35,143 nucleotides of DNA from Planctomycetota bacterium. Its GTDB lineage: Bacteria > Planctomycetota > Phycisphaerae > Sedimentisphaerales > Anaerobacaceae. Shown in pieces: positions 1-29,837 of this stretch (position 1 is the stretch's first letter; each line of letters opens with the position of its first letter). The stretch lies in contig JADFHU010000001.1 in the NCBI GenBank assembly GCA_022567055.1, positions 1 to 35,143 of the forward strand. The letters run 5' to 3'. The position numbers and the translations under genes were made by a program. The notes under the pieces were generated by a model. That model saw only the letters and a list, made by a program, of their open reading frames with translations, had not been told where the DNA came from and ran no database searches.

Positions 1-128
1 AAACGAGCGTTTTTGTGTCTGGCAAGGAAGGCGAAGCAGGCTATCTGAAGATAGTCGATGCAGCCTGACGCCGTCCAGACACAAAACAAGCCGTTTGAAT
101 GCAGAGTCATTTCGATAGGTGCTCTAAG
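1..128 (+). repeat. Rod-repeat family, subfamily B copy (MITE-like imperfect palindrome); left arm cut by the window edge
   Basis: Plus strand reads the core GTCTGGCAAGGAAGGCGAAGCAGGCTATC-TGAA-GATAGTCGATGCAGCCT and ends ...TCATTTCGATAGGTGCTCTAAG. It is the reverse complement of most of 17718-17882. It lies 18 nt beyond the plsY stop. Confidence 0.85.
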
Positions 129-2879: not shown

Positions 2880-3896
2880 TTAACATAGCATGTTGCGGGC
2901 AGCTTGACAAACTCTATCGACGCTAATGGTTTCCATACAGGCCACCTCGGGGTGGGCGCAGGTGGGCCGTTGGCAGGGGACACAGGGGCCCGTTCCCACC
3001 AACTGAATCTCCCGATCGTAACCAGTCTGTGTCCAGGCCGGGTCATTGGGACCAAAGAGGGTAATCACCTGCCGTTGCAGGGCGATGGCGATGTGGCGAG
3101 GCCCGGTATCATTGGTAATGACTAGGTCCGCATGAGAGAACAGCGCCTTGAGTTGTCCTAGGGACAGAGGCCTATCTGCTAAGTTGGTGACAGGGTAGCG
3201 ACACGCTGCGACGATGGTTTGGGCAATTCGTCTTTCCTGCGCATGGGGTGAAACGGAGAGGACGATGTGGGCCCGGCAGTCGCGGATAAGCGTTTCCGCC
3301 GTTCGCGCAAAATGACCCGGGGGCCAACACTTGCTGGGGCCGAAGGCACTGCCCGGCACCAGGATGACGAGCGGGCCCTCGACATCGCTCAACTGAGGAT
3401 AGAGTTTTTCAAAGGATGCCTGATCCCTCTCCGCTACCAGCAAGCGAGGCAAGCCCGGCGCCACGGCACGACCCAGGGACTTCACGATGTTCAGATAGTA
3501 GTCCACCATGGAGGTGGGGGCGAACCTACGGTTGGGCAGACGGGGCGGGTGCAGCCGCTTGGTGAGGAAGAGTCCGCGGCCATCGCGTGCGTATCCCACA
3601 CGCTGAGGGATGCCCGCCAGCAAGAAGGTGGCTGCCGATCCCCAAGAGCCTTTAAATAGGATGCCCAGGGAGAATCCTTGCCCGCGCAGGCGCCGGACGG
3701 CCTGCAGGGTCGAACACTGAGTCAGCCACTCGTCTGCCAGGGCACTAGAGTCCAGCATGGCCCGGGCGACGTCATTGCCATAAAAGGTAAGCGTCGCGTC
3801 GCGGAAACATTGACGGAGGGCATGCAAGGCCGGTGTGCACATGATGATGTCACCCATGGGGGAGGGCAACCAGACTAGAATCCTCGGGTGTTCCAT
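2880..3896 (-). CDS. Glycosyltransferase family 9 (ADP-heptose:LPS heptosyltransferase-like)
   Basis: MEHPRILVWLPSPMGDIIMCTPALHALRQ is a typical GT9 N-terminus. I start it at ATG 3896. The ORF-track start at 4133 reads through the repeat at 3953-4118 and looks like an artefact. Confidence 0.8.
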   Translation of the reverse strand: MEHPRILVWLPSPMGDIIMCTPALHALRQCFRDATLTFYGNDVARAMLDSSALADEWLTQCSTLQAVRRLRGQGFSLGILFKGSWGSAATFLLAGIPQRVGYARDGRGLFLTKRLHPPRLPNRRFAPTSMVDYYLNIVKSLGRAVAPGLPRLLVAERDQASFEKLYPQLSDVEGPLVILVPGSAFGPSKCWPPGHFARTAETLIRDCRAHIVLSVSPHAQERRIAQTIVAACRYPVTNLADRPLSLGQLKALFSHADLVITNDTGPRHIAIALQRQVITLFGPNDPAWTQTGYDREIQLVGTGPCVPCQRPTCAHPEVACMETISVDRVCQAARNMLC

Positions 3897-3952: not shown

Positions 3953-4118
3953 CTAGGCTTTGTCGGAAAACTCCGTCGTCGGCCCGAGAGCGAGCGGTTT
4001 TTTCGCCTGGCAAAGACGGCGAAGCAGGCGATGTTGGTTTTATCGTCGATACAGCCGGATGCAGCCAGGCGGAAAAAGAGCCGCTCGAAGCCAGACCGAG
4101 TTTTCCGACAGAGCCTAG
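3953..4118 (+). repeat. Rod-repeat family, subfamily A copy (166 bp, MITE-like imperfect palindrome)
   Basis: Termini CTAGGCTTTGTCGGAAAACTC ... GAGTTTTCCGACAGAGCCTAG pair 20 of 21. Core is CGCCTGGCAAAGACGGCGAAGCAGGCGAT-loop-ATCGTCGATACAGCCGGATGCAGCCAGGCG. It lies between the stop at 4137 and the start at 3896 of two minus-strand genes. Confidence 0.92.
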
Positions 4119-5573: not shown

Positions 5574-5942
5574 TGTCTTGTCCTCCAGATAAGCCAATAA
5601 ACCCGTTGTTAAACCGGGGCAGCTTCCCAGATCCCGCTAGAAAAGGGTGTCTTGGGTCGACTTCTTCCTTGAGCGAAAGAGATGCTGGGCCCAAAAACAA
5701 CGATTCCAGCTGAACCGCGAACCCAATCATCCGAGTGGCTGCCTTGGTTGCACCTATAGAGACTGGTTTATAGGACCCTGCGCAACAGAGGAATTAAAGA
5801 TTTGATGAAAATACCTCGGCCCACCGAGAGATTTGCGCAGAACGCACGTGCCCAAGACCTGCGTGCGTGCCGCCTACTACAGGCCGTCGCCTGACTCGGC
5901 CATCGGTTCCTGCCCTTACGCTGGGGCTGAGCTTAGAAGAGC

Positions 5943-7976
5943 TTAGTGCTGCTCGGCCTTCTCCTTGGTGTACTGGGAGATCACCTGCTGCTGTACATTG
6001 CCGGGGACCTGCTCGTAGTGGCTTAGCTCCATCGAGTAGCTGCCTTGCCCTCCGGTCACACTCTTGAGTTGACTGTTGTACTGCGTGACTTCGGAGAGCG
6101 GCACTTGGGCCTTGATGACAATGAAGCCGCCCGCCAGCATATCCTGGCCCTGCACGCGGCCTCGCTTCGAGGCCAGGTCGCCGGTGATGTCGCCCATGTT
6201 GTCGGTCGGCACGGTGACTTCCATGTGAACGATGGGCTCCAAGAGGACCGGTCTGGCCTTTTGCAGGGCATCGACAAACGCGCCCTTGCCGGCCGCTCGG
6301 AACGCAACCTCTTTCGAATCGACCGGGTGATGCTTGCCGTCGTAGATGGACACCTTCACATCCTGCAAGGGGAAGCCCGCGACGACGCCCGACGCCATGA
6401 CGTCCTTCACACCTTTCAGGACGGCTATTTCGTATTGCCCCGGAATAGAGGCACCGAAGATGTCCCAACTGAAATCAAGGGAGGGATCGCTGTCGCGGTC
6501 CGCCGGTTCGACCCGCAGATACACTTCACCGAACTGTCCGGCGCCCCCTGATTGTTTCTTATGACGGTAGTGACCTTCGCTCTTGGCGGAGATGGTCTCC
6601 TTGTAGGGTATCTTCGGTTCTTTGGTGTTGACCTTGAGTTTGAAACGCTTCTCCAGTTTTTCAAGCATCACCCGCAGGTGGAGTTCGCCCAAGCCGTAGA
6701 TGACCAGCTCTTTGGTCTGCTGATCCCTATCCACTCTAAAACAGAGGTCCTCTTCACACAGCTTTTCCAAGGCACCGCCTATCTTCTGTTCGTCGCCCCG
6801 GGCGGCGGGTTCGAGGGCCAACGAGAACATGGGCCGCGGTAGGGGAGGCATGTCCACCGTGCCCTGAAAGACCCCGTCGTGGACGATCGAGCCGGTTTTC
6901 AGCTCGTCGACCTTTGCCAGCGTGACGATGTCGCCGGCGATGCCCGCCGGGATCTCGGGGTTTTCGTTGCCCTGTGACTTCAGGATGTGACCGGGGCGCA
7001 CGCCCTTTTTCTCGTGGTCATAGTGCAGGTTCGTTTCCGAAGTGAGGGTGCCGCTGAAAATGCGAATCATCGAGTATTTCATGTTGGTCTTGGGGTCGAA
7101 GGCGACGCGAAAGACCTGCCCGAGCAAGGGACCCTGGGGATCTGCCGTCCATTCTCTGCCAGTGTCACCCTCTTTGACCGTCAGCGGTGCAACATTCGCG
7201 GGCGAGGGGGTGCTGTTGGCCAGGGCATCCAGCAATTCCGGGACACCGATCAGACTCCGGGAATTGGTGAAAAAGATGGGAATGACGGTGCCCGAGACCA
7301 GGGCCTTCCCGAAAACCGACTGGATCTTTTCGGCGGTGACCTCTTCACCGCCGAGATAGGCCTCCATGAGATCATCGTCCGCTTCTATGATGCTTTCAAC
7401 GAGGTCCGTGTGCGCCTGCGCCACATCCATGACCGGAGATTCACCGCTGTCTTGGCTGATGCAATCGATGACAGAGTTCCCATCTGCCGAGGGCAGGTTG
7501 GCACATCGGCACTGGGAACCGAAGGTCTCCTGAATCAAACCCACCAGCTCTCCAAAATCGACATTGTCCGCGTCCATCTTGTTAATGACGATGATCCGAG
7601 ATTTTCCGGCGGTCTCTGCCATTTGACAGAACTTGCGCGTGTTGGTCTCGATGCCGGCGGCCGCGCTGACCACGATGACAGCCGTTTCCGCTGCTGCCAG
7701 GGCCGCGATAGAGGGGCCGATGAAATCCGGGTAGCCTGGCGTGTCCAGGATGTTCAGCTGCTTGCCGGCGTGCTCAACATGGACCAGGGCGGAGCCGATC
7801 GAATGCTGGTGCTCCTTCTCTTCTTCGTAGTAGTCACACACGCTTGTTTTCTCATCGACACTGCCCAAGCGGCTCGTGGTGCCTGTTTTGAAGAGCATTG
7901 CCTCGGCCAGTGAGGTCTTGCCACTTCCTCCATGACCCAGAAGAACGATGTTGCGAATGTTGCCGGTGTCAGCCAC
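5943..7976 (-). CDS. Elongation factor G paralog (EF-G2-like translational GTPase)
   Basis: G-domain motifs GHGGSGKTSL, DTPGYPDF and NKMD, with EF-G domain II-V-like sequence through the C-terminus. I start it at GTG 7976, which has GGAGG 8 nt upstream. The ORF-track start at 8048 lies inside the repeat at 8004-8169. Confidence 0.85.
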   Translation of the reverse strand: MADTGNIRNIVLLGHGGSGKTSLAEAMLFKTGTTSRLGSVDEKTSVCDYYEEEKEHQHSIGSALVHVEHAGKQLNILDTPGYPDFIGPSIAALAAAETAVIVVSAAAGIETNTRKFCQMAETAGKSRIIVINKMDADNVDFGELVGLIQETFGSQCRCANLPSADGNSVIDCISQDSGESPVMDVAQAHTDLVESIIEADDDLMEAYLGGEEVTAEKIQSVFGKALVSGTVIPIFFTNSRSLIGVPELLDALANSTPSPANVAPLTVKEGDTGREWTADPQGPLLGQVFRVAFDPKTNMKYSMIRIFSGTLTSETNLHYDHEKKGVRPGHILKSQGNENPEIPAGIAGDIVTLAKVDELKTGSIVHDGVFQGTVDMPPLPRPMFSLALEPAARGDEQKIGGALEKLCEEDLCFRVDRDQQTKELVIYGLGELHLRVMLEKLEKRFKLKVNTKEPKIPYKETISAKSEGHYRHKKQSGGAGQFGEVYLRVEPADRDSDPSLDFSWDIFGASIPGQYEIAVLKGVKDVMASGVVAGFPLQDVKVSIYDGKHHPVDSKEVAFRAAGKGAFVDALQKARPVLLEPIVHMEVTVPTDNMGDITGDLASKRGRVQGQDMLAGGFIVIKAQVPLSEVTQYNSQLKSVTGGQGSYSMELSHYEQVPGNVQQQVISQYTKEKAEQH

Positions 7977-8003
7977 TCTTTGCGCCTCCCAATAGCCCTT
8001 GTC

Positions 8004-8169
8004 CAAGGCTCTGTCTGAAAACTCCGTCGTCGGCCAGAGAGCGAGCAATTTTTTCGCCTGGCAAAGACGGCGAAGCAGGCGATGTTTTTTCTATCGTCGA
8101 TGCAGCCGGATGCAGCCAGGCGGAAAAAGGGCCGCTCGAAGCCAGATCGAGTTTTCAGTCAGTGCCTAA
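8004..8169 (+). repeat. Rod-repeat family, subfamily A copy (166 bp)
   Basis: CAAGGCTCTGTCTGAAAACTCCGTCGTCGG...GGCGAAGCAGGCGAT...GAGTTTTCAGTCAGTGCCTAA. It lies 27 nt upstream of the EF-G-like start codon, just beyond its RBS. Confidence 0.92.
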
Positions 8170-8273
8170 TGTCAACTGCCTACGGAACTGCACGAAAAGG
8201 GCTGATGATACTCCAACGAAAGGGGCAACGACAAGTCTTTTTTGACCGCGGACCAGGGCAGTCGCAAGGCAGG

Positions 8274-8353
8274 AATCGGTGATCGGTAATCAGTAATCGG
8301 TGAGGCGGCAGAGACTGGCTACTGATTACGTGACCACTGATCACTGATTACCG
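8274..8353. repeat. Heptanucleotide tandem-repeat array in inverted arrangement (unit RATCRGT x4, 19-nt spacer, complementary unit ACYGATY x4-5)
   Basis: AATCGGT GATCGGT AATCAGT AATCGGT (8274-8301), then ACTGATT ACGTGAC c ACTGATC ACTGATT ACCG (8321-8353). The arms can pair into a long stem, which is followed by TTTT on the plus strand. Confidence 0.85.
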
Positions 8354-8409
8354 TTTTCCCGGCCGAGGCTGGGAGCTAGGCCCCGCGCAACTCCATGCAC
8401 GTCCTTCAT

Positions 8410-8886
8410 CTACCGTTTATTCTTGAAAAAGGTGCGTAGCTGCTCCGAGCAAGCCTCGGCGAGGACATCCGATGTGATCCGCACGCTGTGGTTCAGGCGG
8501 GAATCCTGCACGATGTTGTACAAACTGCCGCACGCACCCGTCTTGGGATCATGGCAGCCGAAGACCAATCGATCGATCCGAGCCAGGACCAAGGCCCCGG
8601 CGCACATGGCGCAGGGCTCCAGCGTGACGTACAGGGTACATCCCTGCAAACGCCAGCTCTCCAGGGCCGAAGAGGCCTGGGTCAGGGCGATGACTTCCGC
8701 GTGGGCCGTCGGATCTTGAAGCTGCTCTCGTTGATTGTAGGCCTTGCTGATGATTTGGTCTTCATGGACGATCACACAACCAATGGGCACGTCCCCGTTG
8801 GTCTCGGCGATGTCCGCTTGAACAATAGCCATGCGCATGTAGCGGTCATCATCGCTGTTGATCAATGGAAGATCGCTATAGTCCAT
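8410..8886 (-). CDS. tadA: tRNA-specific adenosine deaminase TadA
   Basis: 158 aa. CDA-fold zinc motifs HAEVIAL and PCAMCAGAL, with size and layout typical of TadA. Confidence 0.9.
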   Translation of the reverse strand: MDYSDLPLINSDDDRYMRMAIVQADIAETNGDVPIGCVIVHEDQIISKAYNQREQLQDPTAHAEVIALTQASSALESWRLQGCTLYVTLEPCAMCAGALVLARIDRLVFGCHDPKTGACGSLYNIVQDSRLNHSVRITSDVLAEACSEQLRTFFKNKR

Positions 8887-8944
8887 GCATGAAAAGAGGA
8901 ATGATCCAAGGTTTGGGGACGGATCCTGACAAAGAATAAAAAAG

Positions 8945-9017
8945 TATCCCCAGGGGGAGTCGAACCCCCGTCTCCAGGATGAGAACCTGATATCCTAGGC
9001 CACTAGACGATGGGGAC
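8945..9017 (-). tRNA. tRNA-Glu (anticodon CUC)
   Basis: Minus strand is GTCCCCATCGTCTAGTGGCCTAGGATATCAGGTTCTCATCCTGGAGACGGGGGTTCGACTCCCCCTGGGGATA. It folds as a cloverleaf closely parallel to the E. coli tRNA-Glu layout. Anticodon loop is TTCTCAT. No encoded CCA. Confidence 0.9.
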
Positions 9018-9021
9018 ACTA

Positions 9022-9186
9022 TAAGGCTTTGTCAGAAAACTCCGTCGTCGGCCCGAGAGCGAGCGTTTTTTCGCCTGGCAAAGACGGCGAAGCAGGCGAT
9101 GTTGGTTTTATCGTCGATACAGCCGGATGCAGCCAGGCGGAAAACAAGCCGCTCGAAGCCAGATCGAGTTTTCTGACACAGCCTAG
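9022..9186 (+). repeat. Rod-repeat family, subfamily A copy (165 bp) filling the tRNA-Met/tRNA-Glu spacer
   Basis: TAAGGCTTTGTCAGAAAACTC ... GAGTTTTCTGACACAGCCTAG. It starts 4 nt from the tRNA-Glu 5' end and ends 7 nt from the tRNA-Met 3' end. Confidence 0.92.
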
Positions 9187-9193
9187 CACGTAG

Positions 9194-9267
9194 TAGCGAC
9201 GGGTGGACTCGAACCACCGACCTTAGGCTTATGAATCCCACGCTCTAACCGACTGAGCTACGTCGCC
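9194..9267 (-). tRNA. tRNA with CAU anticodon (elongator Met, or Ile2 if lysidine-modified)
   Basis: Minus strand is GGCGACGTAGCTCAGTCGGTTAGAGCGTGGGATTCATAAGCCTAAGGTCGGTGGTTCGAGTCCACCCGTCGCTA. Anticodon loop is TTCATAA. It is not initiator-like, with no C1xA72 and no GGG/CCC anticodon stem. There is one A31/G39 mismatch. Confidence 0.8.
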
Positions 9268-11339: not shown

Positions 11340-11564
11340 CTAGGCTCTTTCTGAAAACTCCGTCGTCGGCCCGAGAGCGAGCAATTTTTTCTTTGGCTGT
11401 ATTAGGCTGCTGGCGCAGCCGCGTTTCGGACAAAGGAAGCCGCTGTTTTCGCCTGGCAAAGACGGCGAAGCAGGCGATGTTGGTTGCATCGTCGATGGAG
11501 CCGGATACAGCCAGGCGAAAAAAGGGCCGTTCGAAGCCAGATCGAGTGTTCAGACAGAGCCTTA
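11340..11564 (+). repeat. Rod-repeat family, subfamily A copy carrying a roughly 58-bp internal insertion (225 bp)
   Basis: Same termini and core as the other A copies. Extra segment CTTTGGCTGTATTAGGCTGCTGGCGCAGCCGCGTTTCGGACAAAGGAAGCCGCTGTTT sits in the left arm. The copy ends 2 nt from the tRNA-Arg 3' end and starts 18 nt upstream of the 11322 start codon. Confidence 0.9.
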
Positions 11565-16671: not shown

Positions 16672-16700
16672 TTGCACAGCTTCCGAAAAATCCATACAAT
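16672..16700 (+). promoter_or_regulatory. Candidate sigma-70-type promoter (TTGCAC-N17-TACAAT)
   Basis: It is a good hexamer and spacing match. It overlaps the only in-frame ATG (16699) of the downstream ORF, which bears on start-codon choice (see findings). Confidence 0.4.
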
Positions 16701-16764
16701 GAAGCGATCTCGGCAGGGATGCGCGCGAATAGACACCGATAGGGATTCGTTCGGAGGCGAGCTG

Positions 16765-17685
16765 ATTCGTCCTGTTGCCAGACATTCCGTAGGGGGGCGC
16801 AAAGGCCAGACGGCGTTTACGCTGGTGGAGCTGCTAGTCGTGATTTCCATCATCTCGCTGATGACGGCCATCATCGTTCCGGCGTTGAGCATTGTCATGC
16901 GCAAGGCGGAGAGTCTCCGCGGAATGAACAACCTCAAGCAGGTGGGCATGCAGCTCCAACTCTTCGCCAATGATCACCAGGACCGTTATCCTGCGTCGGT
17001 TGCCACCATCGGTTCAAGCACAGGCTGGAACTGGTATGACCCCAGGCGAATGGTCGGCTCTGCCCAGCAAACGCCGACCGTCCATCGGTCCATGAGCGCC
17101 TATTTGAAGGGTTACATCGAGGACCCCTCCCTGCTTGCGTGCCCCTCGGCACCCCAAGAGTATCCCTACCTCGAGGCCATGTGGGCCGCGGGCGATGCCT
17201 GGGGCAACCCCGACACGCCCCCATTGTTGGATCCCATGAAGGGCTCCTACTGCTTTTATTGGAACTACGAGGGTATGATCACACAGGGCAGTGAGGATCG
17301 GACTCGGTTTCGTGGGCCCGTCGGACCGGGCAGCAGCAGGAAATATAGCAAACTCCTGGTGACCGATTACTATGGCAAGGGCACCGGACACGATGGTCCG
17401 CCGCCCCTCACCTTCACCAGTTGCGAAATGTTCGCGGGTGCCGCGGTCAACAGCAAAGAGAATGTGACGGCCTACTGGACCCGTCCTGTGGGTCTTGCCG
17501 AGGCGGTGCCGGTACTGTCGCTGAAGGCCGTGTACACCGACGGCCACGTCGGGACCTATGGGTCCGATGAGGTGGTTGAAATGTCCGTCATCAAGGCGCG
17601 AAGTCGCACCGCACCCGAGGTGTACGGGATTGGCGACGATCGCAGCCCGGGCCTTTTCTTCCTTCCTGCCGACGCGATGCATTGA
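16765..17685 (+). CDS. Prepilin-type N-terminal cleavage/methylation-domain protein (DUF1559 / H-X9-DG-like pseudopilin paralog 1)
   Basis: FTLVELLVVISIISLMTAII ... NNLKQVG, with C-terminal YTDGHV. The ORF track opens at 16672. I favour the ATT at 16765, which has GGAGG 7 nt upstream and gives a 17-aa leader identical in length to the paralog. The start is uncertain; the stop is firm. Confidence 0.75.
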   Translation: MRPVARHSVGGRKGQTAFTLVELLVVISIISLMTAIIVPALSIVMRKAESLRGMNNLKQVGMQLQLFANDHQDRYPASVATIGSSTGWNWYDPRRMVGSAQQTPTVHRSMSAYLKGYIEDPSLLACPSAPQEYPYLEAMWAAGDAWGNPDTPPLLDPMKGSYCFYWNYEGMITQGSEDRTRFRGPVGPGSSRKYSKLLVTDYYGKGTGHDGPPPLTFTSCEMFAGAAVNSKENVTAYWTRPVGLAEAVPVLSLKAVYTDGHVGTYGSDEVVEMSVIKARSRTAPEVYGIGDDRSPGLFFLPADAMH

Positions 17686-17717: not shown

Positions 17718-17882
17718 CTAAAGAGCCCCTACGCAAAATGACTCTGCATTCAAACGGCTTATTCTGCGTCTGGACGGCGTCAGGCTCCATCGACCGTCCT
17801 CGGACGGCCTGCTTCGCCTTCCTTGCCAGTCGCAGAAACGCTCGTTTTCGGTGCGACGATTCATTTTGATAGGCACTCTAAG
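17718..17882 (-). repeat. Rod-repeat family, subfamily B complete copy (165 bp)
   Basis: CTAAAGAGCCCCTACGCAAAATGACTC ... GATTCATTTTGATAGGCACTCTAAG. The minus strand carries the core CTGGCAAGGAAGGCGAAGCAGGCCGTC-CGAG-GACGGTCGATGGAGCCT. It lies between two tandem plus-strand pseudopilin paralogs. Confidence 0.9.
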
Positions 17883-17965: not shown

Positions 17966-18874
17966 ATGCGATCTGATCGGGCAAAGTCAGGTGGAAAGGA
18001 AAAGCACGGGGCGGGGTTTACCCTGGTCGAGCTGCTCGTCTCCATCTCGATCTTGTCCCTTCTCATGGCCATTTCAGTTCCGGGTTTTTCGGCTCTCCAA
18101 CGCAAGGCGCTCCAATTGCGGGGCATGAGCAACCTCAAGCAGATCCACCATTCCGTGAGCCTCTTCGCCAATGACCATGGGGACCGGTATCCACCCTCGG
18201 TGTCCTGGATTGGAGGCCCTTTACCACAGGCCCTTTACCATCCCCGGCGACTGGTCAGCTCGACGAAGCCGAGGGGAGCAGTCCATCGGTCGATGAGTGG
18301 TTACCTCCATGGGTACCTGTCGGATGTGTCCATATGGACCTGTCCTTCGGCGCCGGAAAAAGTCCCGGACATGCAGGAGATGTGGGATGCCGGCGACGAC
18401 TATGTGTCTCGTTCCGGCAGCGCTGCCTTCAGTGGACACTACTGTTTCTTCTGGGGGTGGACCGGCCTGATTGAAGGCGAGACCACGAATGGCCCGCGTC
18501 CGGTCTTCAGAGGTCCCAGGGGCCCAGGAGCAGACCGCAAGTCGAGCAGCCTGCTGGTTGCGGATTGTTTCGGCAAGGATATCAACACGGACCTGCCAGG
18601 CTATGCCAGCTGTGAGTGGTTTGAGGGCGCATCGGAATCCATCAGCAAGGACATTTCTGCCGTCTATTGGCTTGAAGAGAAGAATCTAGGTTTCCTTCGC
18701 TCGCCTCCGTTGCCGGAGGTGACTTTGAAGGCTGCGTACGTGGATGGACACGTGGCCCTCTATGACGTGTCGAAAAGTCTGGCCCGTGTCAGGGTTGATA
18801 GGGGAGACGGACACCCCAACAACAAAGACGGCTACTACTACATCCCCGAGGACGGCCTGCCACTAAAACGCTGA
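17966..18874 (+). CDS. Prepilin-type N-terminal cleavage/methylation-domain protein (pseudopilin paralog 2)
   Basis: MRSDRAKSGGKEKHGAG-FTLVELLVSISILSLLMAI ... SNLKQIH, with C-terminal YVDGHV. Clearly paralogous to 16765-17685. Confidence 0.8.
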   Translation: MRSDRAKSGGKEKHGAGFTLVELLVSISILSLLMAISVPGFSALQRKALQLRGMSNLKQIHHSVSLFANDHGDRYPPSVSWIGGPLPQALYHPRRLVSSTKPRGAVHRSMSGYLHGYLSDVSIWTCPSAPEKVPDMQEMWDAGDDYVSRSGSAAFSGHYCFFWGWTGLIEGETTNGPRPVFRGPRGPGADRKSSSLLVADCFGKDINTDLPGYASCEWFEGASESISKDISAVYWLEEKNLGFLRSPPLPEVTLKAAYVDGHVALYDVSKSLARVRVDRGDGHPNNKDGYYYIPEDGLPLKR

Positions 18875-19964: not shown

Positions 19965-19979
19965 AGCGCTGTCCCCCGC

Positions 19980-20159
19980 GGGACCGGCAAGAAATAAATT
20001 GGACAATTTGGGGTCCAAGTGTGCCCCATATTGGGTCGCGCCCGATTGAGCGAAACCACAGGCGTAGCAGTTCTACGTCGCGGATTTCGCGATTGAGAAG
20101 CGATCAAAGATGGGGTGCAATTGGGCATTCAAAAGTCCAAGTTATTTCTTGCCGGTCCC
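19980..20159. repeat. 180-bp element bounded by 25-bp inverted repeats (MITE-like or operator/looping site)
   Basis: GGGACCGGCAAGAAATAAATTGGAC (19980-20004) against GTCCAAGTTATTTCTTGCCGGTCCC (20135-20159) matches 24 of 25. There are small internal hairpins. Only one copy is in the window. Confidence 0.75.
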
Positions 20160-20199
20160 TAAGACACACTAACAGTATACAAATCGATCTCGTTTGCCG

Positions 20200-21775: not shown

Positions 21776-21941
21776 CTAGGCTCTGTCTGAAAACTCGATC
21801 TGGCTTCGAGCGGCCCTTTTTCCGCCTGGCTGCATCCGGCTCCATCGACGATGAAACCAACATCGCCTGCTTCGCCGTCTTTGCCAGGCGAAAAAATTGC
21901 TCGCTCTCGGGCCAACGACCGAGTCTTCAGACAGAGCCCGA
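21776..21941 (-). repeat. Rod-repeat family, subfamily A copy (166 bp), reverse orientation
   Basis: Plus strand reads CTAGGCTCTGTCTGAAAACTCGATCTGGCTTCGAGCGG...CATCGCCTGCTTCGCCGTCTTTGCCAGGCG...GAGTCTTCAGACAGAGCCCGA. It ends 18 nt before the moaB ORF. Confidence 0.92.
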
Positions 21942-21958: not shown

Positions 21959-22546
21959 GTGGGCATAGACGAATGGAGGTCCAGCTTGGCAGAGAAAAGC
22001 GAACGAGAATTCCTTCCCCTAGGGGTTGCCGTCCTGACGATCTCCGACACGCGAACGGAAGCAACAGACAAATCGGGCAGACTCCTGGTGAACAGATTGG
22101 AAGGGGCGGGACATCACAGGGTAGACAAACAGATCGTGCCCGACGATTTGTATCAGATTCGGGCGGTTGTCGCGCGTTGGATCGCGCAGGCGGATTGCCA
22201 AGTCATTCTCACGACGGGCGGCACCGGCGTGACCGGTAGGGACGGCACGCCCGAGGCCGTTGCGCCTCTGCTGGACAAGGTCATTGACGGTTTCGGGGAG
22301 ATGTTTCGCATGCTGTCCTATGACGACATCGGCACCGCGACCATGCAGTCCCGCACGCTGGCCGGTGTCGCCAATGGCACCTATGTCTTCTGCCTACCCG
22401 GCTCGGGTGGGGCCTGTGCCTTGGGGTGGGACAAGTTGATCAGCCACCAGTTGGATTACCGCACTCGCCCCTGCAATCTCGTAGAACTCATGCCGCGTTT
22501 GCTGGAAACGCTCGGCGATCGCCATCCGACCGGACATCATCACTGA
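21959..22546 (+). CDS. moaB: Molybdenum cofactor biosynthesis protein B (MoaB/MogA family)
   Basis: Collinear with E. coli MoaB as I recall it: LTISDTR...[44 protein letters not shown]. The true start may be TTG 21986, which has GGAGG 6 nt upstream. Confidence 0.88.
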
Positions 22547-22551
22547 ACACA

Positions 22552-22600
22552 GATCACGGATCACGGATCACGGATTACAGATTACAGATTACTGATCACT
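22552..22600 (+). repeat. Heptanucleotide tandem array, 7 units of GAT(C/T)AC(G/A/T)
   Basis: GATCACG x3, GATTACA x2, GATTACT, GATCACT. It begins 6 nt after the moaB stop. The unit is the complement of the 8274-8301 unit (RATCNGT). Confidence 0.9.
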
Positions 22601-22628
22601 GCTCCCGCCTTCCCCTCTCCGATGGTTG

Positions 22629-29713: not shown

Positions 29714-29837
29714 AAAGGCTCTGTCTGGAAACTCGATCTGGCTTCCCTTCGGATCTGCCCTGGGCCATGAGTTCGGGCCGAATGGGGCCTCGGGGTCGAA
29801 GACGAGCCGACCGACGGAGGTTTCAGACAGAGCCTAG
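29714..29837 (-). repeat. Rod-repeat chimeric variant (124 bp): subfamily A arms with an unrelated core
   Basis: AAAGGCTCTGTCTGGAAACTCGATCTGGCTTC ... CCGACCGACGGAGGTTTCAGACAGAGCCTAG. The interior lacks the GGCGAAGCAGG block. Its terminal CTA supplies the stop codon of the adjacent pseudogene. Confidence 0.8.

Follow-up and report, generated by a model that had tools for sequence, protein, structure and literature searches.

Eight copies of a hairpin-forming repeat lie in the 35,143-nt stretch of planctomycete DNA that was analyzed here in full (hereafter the window). Taken jointly, the evidence is best explained by a superfamily of non-autonomous DNA transposons (MITEs) that occurs in many genomes labelled Planctomycetota and would be served by a transposase acting in trans, a reading to which we assign a probability of roughly 65%. 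This superfamily of fold-back MITEs is apparently new and undescribed; our literature search found no description of a planctomycete MITE or of a relevant repeat, and Planctomycetes are not mentioned in a 2024 review of prokaryotic MITEs (PMC10969869).

Repeat copies in the window

A repeat finder and alignment applied to the whole window recovered eight copies at the coordinates listed in an earlier note made from the sequence alone (Table 1). The three minus-strand copies are reverse complements of the five plus-strand copies. Alignment of all eight divided them into subfamily A (c2, c3, c4, c5, c7 and c8) and subfamily B (c1 and c6), which differ in their terminal stems and have the central block in common. 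The ends of subfamily A read AGGCTCTGTCTGAAAACTC ... GAGTTTTCAGACAGAGCCT in c2, c3, c4, c5 and c7, and those of subfamily B read AGAGTGCCTATCAAAATGA ... TCATTTTGCGTAGGGGCTCT. The earlier description of a single family with shared inverted termini therefore stands for subfamily A and fails for c1 and c6, which have the subfamily B termini (AGAGTGCCTATCAAAATGA...). The central block, composed of GGCGAAGCAGGC, a short hairpin and GTCGATnnAGCC, is present in seven copies, in agreement with what had been noticed before. Copies c1 and c6 were scored as 88% complementary by the repeat finder.

A covariance model was trained on 25 diverse family members and run on the window. Seven of the eight copies matched it with E-values from 1e-18 to 4e-36, and c8 was found with filters off only (33 bits, E 3e-6). 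The sole other window match at E < 0.1 was weak (19979-20160, E 0.034) and belongs to an unrelated rod repeat.

All eight copies are intergenic and lie close to stop codons, starts or tRNA ends, as originally observed, with measured distances of 2-32 nt. The distances to stop codons are 18 nt (stops at 147 and 4137), 32 nt (17685) and 25 nt (29688), and those to tRNA genes are 4 nt for tRNA-Glu, 6 nt for tRNA-Met and 2 nt for tRNA-Arg. The family accounts for ~3.7% of the window, which has an average G+C content of 58%. According to Pfam annotation of 28 of the larger ORFs, the window genes are ordinary chromosomal ones, including PlsY, glycosyltransferases, EF-G, a TadA-type deaminase, an ECF sigma factor and prepilin-type proteins; the closest named relatives of the EF-G are from Phycisphaerae. 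The two prepilin-type (N_methyl) genes around c6 stand in tandem (16672-17685 and 17966-18874) and contain stretches that are 80-88% identical and 1201 nt apart (16918-17000 and 18119-18201).

Table 1. Repeat copies in the window and the modules located within them
Feature	Position	Strand	Description	Evidence
c1	1-128	+	subfamily B; 5' part lost at window edge	model match 1-125, E 2.6e-20, model positions 33-160
c2	3953-4118	+	subfamily A, complete (CTAG ... CTAG); copy named in the earlier note	model match 3955-4116, 158 bits, E 4e-36
c2 apical module	4018-4056	+	GGCGAAGCAGGC, variable hairpin, GTCGATACAGCC; position of the central block in c2	sequence, alignment, consensus fold
c3	8004-8169	+	subfamily A; 27 nt upstream of EF-G start (7976)	model match 8006-8167, E 1.4e-34
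c4	9022-9186	+	subfamily A; between tRNA-Glu and tRNA-Met; strain-polymorphic	model match 9024-9184, E 5e-36
c5	11340-11564	+	subfamily A; nested insertion in left arm	alignment; model match 11404-11562, E 4e-22
nested mini-element in c5	11392-11445; second duplication copy TTTTC 11446-11450	+		alignment with uninterrupted copies
c6	17718-17882	-	subfamily B, complete; between paralogous prepilin-type (N_methyl) genes	model match 17722-17879, E 5e-28
c7	21776-21941	-	subfamily A; divergent spacer between LysM gene and MoCF gene	model match 21778-21939, E 2e-34
c8	29714-29837	-	subfamily A termini (~35 nt per end), foreign 50-nt core, without apical module	alignment

Rod structure and apical tip

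Each copy in the window folds into one end-to-end rod with a free energy of -48 to -106 kcal/mol, and z-scores of -4.4 to -12 against mononucleotide shuffles place the single long hairpin proposed for every copy far below its controls. The consensus fold, taken from a sequence-only MAFFT alignment with no structure fitting, has 37 pairs in 8 helices. In this fold 92.6% of the alignment cells are paired, compared with 32-43% after shifting the partners by 1-3 columns. Compensatory change on both sides was seen in 28 of the 37 pairs, and the covariation score of 0.65 (0.20 in shuffles) was reached by none of 500 shuffles. Across the family, element length ranges only from 157 to 172 nt and a terminal helix of 17-20 bp is present in every subfamily, so that all have terminal inverted repeats. 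Complementarity of the terminal helix alone is expected of any transposon ends, but here the inner helices also covary and the length is fixed. With covarying stems and no codon pattern, the elements are non-coding, and they stay under the ~300 bp that is customary for MITEs.

Several internal loops are conserved besides the apical module. The tip itself is a pseudo-symmetric 6x6 internal loop with the strands GAAGCA and GAUNCA (GAUACA in c2), enclosed between a GGC/GCC helix and a GGC/GUC helix, the second of which carries a G-U pair. The two strands are near-identical (GAAGCA and GAUGCA), and the folded tip can be written as GGCGAAGCAGGC-loop-GUCGAUGCAGCC. The hairpin beyond the tip varies from 8 to 24 nt among relatives and the half-motifs are always juxtaposed in the fold; given this variable length, they are neighbours only in the folded form.

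Two known structural classes were considered for the rod or its tip and rejected. A kink-turn would fit the GGC-GAA-G/A-GCC part of the tip, but on inspection of the sequence its second sheared pair would be C-C. Intrinsic terminators were dismissed as well: no T-run is found 3' of the rods, and copies occur in tandem, convergent and divergent spacers.

Strand preference

Folding favours the strand bearing the motif over its complement in 26 of the 27 representatives, by ~13 kcal/mol on average. For instance, the rod of c2 has -99.4 kcal/mol on the motif strand and -84.8 kcal/mol on the opposite one, the corresponding values for c7 are -104.7 and -82.3 kcal/mol, and the covariance model scores 150 bits on one strand versus 23-32 bits on the other. 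Outside the tip, G-U pairs number 77 and A-C single mismatches 9. Since every G-U pair on one strand corresponds to an A-C mismatch on its complement, strand-symmetric mutation should produce both in equal numbers; a mutation bias linked to replication or transcription cannot explain the excess either, because the genomic orientation of the elements is mixed. The G-U excess indicates that selection acts on a folded single strand with a fixed polarity. When DNA energy parameters are used, the strand gap of c7 becomes smaller and persists (-51.7 versus -45.4 kcal/mol), which makes RNA a more natural reading than single-stranded DNA; that the functional folded form is RNA is, in our estimate, possible at somewhat less than even odds.

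In a survey of ~85 copies, orientation relative to the flanking genes was mixed (20 opposite/opposite, 14 same/same, 14 convergent and 12 divergent). An antisense orientation as a trait of the family fits all co-directional gene clusters of the window and fails across these ~85 copies; even within the window, two copies occupy mixed-orientation spacers in which the antisense call is ambiguous.

Much of this structural evidence would equally suit structured non-coding RNA genes or cis-regulatory RNAs kept by the host as stabilisers, processing sites or decoys, with mobility being incidental. Covariation in all helices, tolerance of G-U with purging of A-C, conserved internal loops at a fixed length, and tip half-motifs that meet only on folding, irrespective of how long the intervening hairpin is, are all in line with such a role. 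It is the mixed orientation to flanking genes, together with the lack of a Rfam match and an element too small to accommodate a promoter ahead of its 5' end, that first speaks against it; the comparison of strains and relatives bears on it further below.

Distribution of the family

An exact-pattern scan with the central block, over one genome per species, yielded at least 84 loci (L-numbers are the labels of retrieved loci or contigs), four of which are chance matches without a rod (L046, L062, L065 and L076). True rods were found in at least 35 assemblies, nearly all labelled Planctomycetota, and the alternative of a local duplication, raised in the earlier note, accordingly failed. The host labels include Phycisphaerae, Sedimentisphaerales, Pirellulales, Planctomycetaceae and a Kuenenia MAG, and two isolates, Kolteria novifilia Pan216 and Bremerella sp. 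JC770, carry rods. More than 12 subfamilies were distinguished, the stem sequences of which are entirely different with complementarity kept. The invariance of the central block among these relatives is partly by construction, as the pattern was the query, while the surrounding architecture is independent of it. The covariance model also detected related rods of ~178 nt that have the lower loops in common and a different tip (L014 153-330, L029 562-739, L007 7417-7593 and L013 5212-5390).

Known RNA families and extrachromosomal origins found no support. Rfam produced no gathering-score match in the window besides three tRNAs, and relaxed searches gave none for c2 at E up to 10 and none for c6 at E up to 1; a known RNA family was therefore rejected, and the earlier note, which placed the repeats in no Rfam family, is borne out. 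A phage or plasmid origin was rejected on the basis of PLSDB and IMG/VR searches. The element is absent from PLSDB plasmids and the central motif from IMG/VR viral contigs. The end pattern of subfamily A had 47 matches in IMG/VR, of which 39 represent a single conserved phage sequence; all 47 lack an inverted partner, and the subfamily B end pattern had no match there.

Evidence for mobility

Presence of c4 differs between strains. Contig L085 is 98.7% identical to window positions 7333-9243 on both sides and lacks c4, its spacer from tRNA-Met to tRNA-Glu measuring 6 nt, and strain contigs L086 and L169 contain the copy. All three contigs also have c3. The junction of the filled and empty c4 sites is not clean (TGTTAG when empty, A[element]AGCAC when filled), so that the comparison demonstrates gain or loss and not a target duplication. 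No copy was present in 80 metagenome loci orthologous to the EF-G locus (822 kb; protein identity of 44-78%). Empty orthologous sites, which the earlier note had recommended looking for, are represented both by L085 without c4 and by these 822 kb; exact look-ups of five other window proteins for further empty sites returned no record. Copies 98-100% identical to c6 and c1 reside at unrelated loci of another assembly (98% for c6, in L068).

Target duplications could be read in relatives whose ends are of the GAG type. Identical 3-nt flanks border 11 of 28 such copies (TTA in eight, TAA in two and TTT in one), in comparison with 4.9 expected by permutation (P = 0.0005), and the TTT-flanked copy is conserved between two genomes that are 91% identical (L006 and L012). 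In other subfamilies the element, G...C, is preceded by N-TA and followed by TA-N, consistent with a 2-nt duplication. The flanks of subfamily A are near-invariant, with CTA before GGCTC ... GAGCC and TAR after it, and a duplication is consequently indistinguishable from element sequence. The earlier note could read no consistent target duplication and called mobility unproven. The first part remains true of subfamily A, whereas the duplication is visible in the GAG-type relatives, and mobility is now evident from the c4 polymorphism. The elements often coincide with the TAA/TAG stop codon of an adjacent gene: where a gene 3' end faces an element, the two overlap at the element's terminal TAG/TAA in about 30% of cases, as expected for TA-containing targets in a genome of 58% G+C. 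Deletion derivatives (L032 3300-3353 and c8) and nested insertions exist as well. On these grounds the elements are quite probably non-autonomous mobile DNA.

The same comparisons weigh on the host-kept RNA explanation. Orthologous loci of relatives totalling 822 kb do without a copy, c4 is present or absent depending on the strain, and copies that have lost the tip persist (c8 and L032); with the points given above, we consider this explanation improbable. The suggestion that one copy per few kilobases marks a functional component of the genome did not hold up in view of those 822 kb without a copy and the mixed orientation, and a selfish mobile element explains the density better than host function does.

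Elements mobilized as folded single strands deserve separate consideration. If the repeats were hairpin elements of the REPIN/RAYT or IS200/IS605 type, their folded top strand would be the substrate of an HUH tyrosine transposase that acts on single-stranded DNA at the replication fork, which would account for a strongly strand-specific fold and for a full-length rod with conserved unpaired bases. The loop of the 5' arm contains a CGTC/GTAG-like motif of moderate conservation that is reminiscent of the REP tags GTAG and CGTC, although it is loose and located in an internal loop. To our knowledge, however, elements of these kinds have neither a duplication nor terminal inverted repeats, whereas the identical 3-nt flanks that vary by copy here (TTA, TAA, TTT) indicate a staggered double-strand cut. 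No Y1 transposase was seen near any copy, and in the window the orientation of the elements switches with gene direction while GC skew is constant. Some precedent for the idea comes from described RAYT-like genes that lie between long terminal inverted repeats and have repeat families to match, but REPs are 20-40 nt long (PMC3733652) and the present element, with terminal repeats and duplications, is ~160 nt. HUH enzymes would explain the strand bias and not the duplications, and we regard this origin as unlikely.

Search for the mobilizing enzyme

Under the preferred reading of MITEs mobilized in trans, a partner transposase should exist elsewhere. None was found by Pfam annotation of 28 of the larger ORFs in the window, in line with the earlier note. 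Neither was a transposase with matching ends detected in ~550 kb around other copies, an IS427/IS1031-type OrfA motif in 169 loci, or a multi-copy gene among the at least 84 loci of the pattern scan. Candidate autonomous partners were discarded in turn: solo ends in these loci could be put down to chance or to a deletion derivative, and an inverted pair of copies in L048 encloses a type II/IV secretion ATPase and no transposase. Inverted repeats flanking 0.5-3 kb were limited to one unrelated pair of ~170 nt around a sulfatase-like gene in L068. These two near-identical inverted repeats (2948-3120 and 5719-5878) surround an ORF of 501 aa that is sulfatase-like by translation, and probably represent yet another repeat family.

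The ends of the elements offer a lead. In all subfamilies they begin with GG or GA, being of the GG or GAG type, and 14 of 18 positions agree between the left end of c2 and the IS903 end, which bears out the likeness to IS903 repeats suggested in the earlier note; the sequence of the IS903 end was confirmed in over 5000 plasmid records that carry an IS903B/IS5 family annotation. Against this affinity, the duplications of IS903 itself are 9 bp long. Among bacterial groups, IS1031 (3-nt duplication, GAG ends) and IS427 and ISL2 (2-4 nt) would fit. The TTA/TAA/TTT duplications and the C-TA...TA-R flanks found here agree with the 2-4-nt TA/TNA/TWA targets of IS5/PIF-Harbinger elements. The duplication in the IS5-related PHIS superfamily varies from group to group, being TWA (3 nt), 2 nt long or absent, and GG is the usual start of the terminal repeats in its ISL2EU group (PMC4482050). 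Judged from ends and duplications only, an IS5-like partner transposase may be involved, with a likelihood just short of even.

A different source of TA-flanked MITEs is the IS630/Tc1-mariner group, which inserts at TA (CTAG for IS630 itself) and duplicates it. The pneumococcal RUP element, tied to IS630-Spn1 through its terminal repeats and TA target (PMC2229807), is the precedent, and C-TA ... TA-G/A flanks in subfamily A and several GAG-type subfamilies resemble this pattern. The clean 3-nt duplications TTA, TAA and TTT in homologous subfamilies are nevertheless at odds with a strict 2-nt TA, and both the GG/GAG ends and the 14/18 match to IS903 point to IS5. An enzyme of the IS630 type would explain TA and not TTA/TAA/TTT, and such an origin appears very improbable.

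Nested modules, derivatives and other repeats

The additional 59 nt of c5 consist of a 54-nt mini-element and a 5-nt duplication, inserted in the T-run of the left arm. The same mini-element, reverse-complemented, occupies the mirror site of the right arm in five copies from other assemblies (L001, L024, L029, L044 and L048). The MITE itself appears to be its target, and copies interrupted in this way have apparently propagated as a variant. The core of c8 (29746-29812) shares 21 nt (within GTCTTCGACCCCGAGGC...) with an extra right-arm insertion in L001 (2609-2629) and with L068 (3962-3982), a similarity of sequence that suggests a further small inserted module. In L032 a coreless 55-nt mini version of subfamily A (3300-3353) has its left end joined to the right arm and lies 170 nt from a complete subfamily B copy.

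A second, unrelated rod repeat of ~181 nt was noted at 19980-20159, with the ends GGGACCGGCAAGAAATAA ... TTATTTCTTGCCGGTCCC and folding energies of -105 (plus strand) and -91 kcal/mol (minus strand). It is also found in L068, L014, L029 and L008, assemblies which also have subfamilies A and B, and strain contigs L087 and L088 end inside it. Heptanucleotide tandem arrays were observed in two spacers, at 8274-8348 between tadA and c3 (four units of AATCGGT, then four of ACTGATC) and at 22539-22601 directly downstream of the MoCF gene (8.7 units of ATCACAG); the repeat finder scored 8272-8301 and 22584-22613 as 73% complementary.

Proposed mechanism and comparison with known systems

In the mechanism that we propose, a transposase encoded elsewhere in the genome would mobilize the elements in trans. 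This enzyme would most probably be a DDE transposase of the IS5/PIF-Harbinger kind, making a 2-3-nt staggered cut at TA/TWA. The conserved rod, the loops and the strand bias suggest that the working form is a folded single strand of fixed polarity, most probably a read-through transcript and less probably single-stranded DNA. The pseudo-symmetric tip is predicted to be bound by protein, likely by a dimer, and might help to process or stabilise transcripts reading through the element, or contribute to the propagation of the element itself.

DDE cut-and-paste transposition does not by itself explain one-strand folding. It is conceivable, though rather doubtful, that the rod, far from being incidental to a pair of transposon ends, is a mobile structured nucleic-acid module, a folded single strand of fixed polarity whose tip and loops are read by a dedicated protein and whose spread or survival depends on being read. 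Such a module would be either hairpin-dependent transposition with 2-3-nt duplications or a dispersed small RNA riding on a transposase. If true, either variant would be a kind of element new to description, conserved across many lineages of the phylum.

An established class of bacterial MITEs, with Correia, ERIC and RUP as examples, comprises elements of 100-200 bp that are transcribed into long stem-loops and in many cases have TA termini and no known transposase (PMC2229807; PMC10969869). By behaviour the present family belongs with this class, the likeness being one of kind. The closest parallels among its members can be described individually. ERIC/IRU elements of Enterobacteriaceae and Vibrionaceae are likewise imperfect palindromes of 100-200 bp in intergenic, transcribed DNA, with TA termini, a target duplication, no known transposase and copy numbers that are very variable between related genomes; their transcript folds into a single long stem-loop, which can alter how stable adjacent mRNA is (PMC2229807; PMC10969869). 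In contrast, ERIC has 127 nt and the present elements ~160 nt, their hosts are Planctomycetota, and they comprise many subfamilies with unlike stems, have 2- or 3-nt duplications and conserve a pseudo-symmetric apical loop.

The Correia/NEMIS elements of Neisseria are fold-back MITEs too, with TA ends, high copy number beside genes and a conserved internal module. Their termini differ from those found here, the Correia terminal repeat starting with TATAGTGGATTAA. Correia elements contain an internal IHF site and are co-transcribed and cut by RNase III (PMC10969869; PMC2229807). The internal module of the planctomycete elements is instead an unpaired loop of a folded strand and not a double-stranded IHF site, and the family extends over many lineages of a phylum rather than one genus.

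Tourist-type MITEs of the IS5/PIF-Harbinger (PHIS) group resemble the present family in their TWA 3-nt or 2-nt duplications, AT-rich targets and GG-starting repeats (PMC4482050), and also in the agreement of the IS903 end with that of c2 (14/18 bases). However, no cognate transposase was found here, and ordinary MITEs conserve their terminal repeats, whereas in this family the termini vary and the interior fold is kept. REPIN/RAYT populations are similar in being hairpin-forming, non-coding and long-lived, and are thought to act as folded single strands (PMC3733652). The planctomycete elements differ from them in being longer, in having terminal inverted repeats and target duplications, and in having no associated RAYT gene. 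As far as can be told, the distribution over lineages of a whole phylum, the turnover of stems under a fixed architecture, the conserved apical loop and a measurable strand bias go beyond the known examples.

Significance

The repeats break short-read assemblies and limit contiguity for this lineage: strain contigs L085-L088 and L169 start or end inside c3, c4, c5 or the repeat at 19980. Insertion on stop codons, beside tRNA genes and in translation-start regions probably shapes gene expression as well as assembly quality. The covariance model can be used now to annotate or mask the elements in planctomycete genomes and MAGs. More than 12 subfamilies, in which nearly all stem pairs have been exchanged while the rod, the loops and the strand preference are the same, form a rare natural experiment that can show what a fold-back transposon needs besides its ends, and the cultured hosts Kolteria novifilia Pan216 and Bremerella sp. 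JC770 make this question testable.
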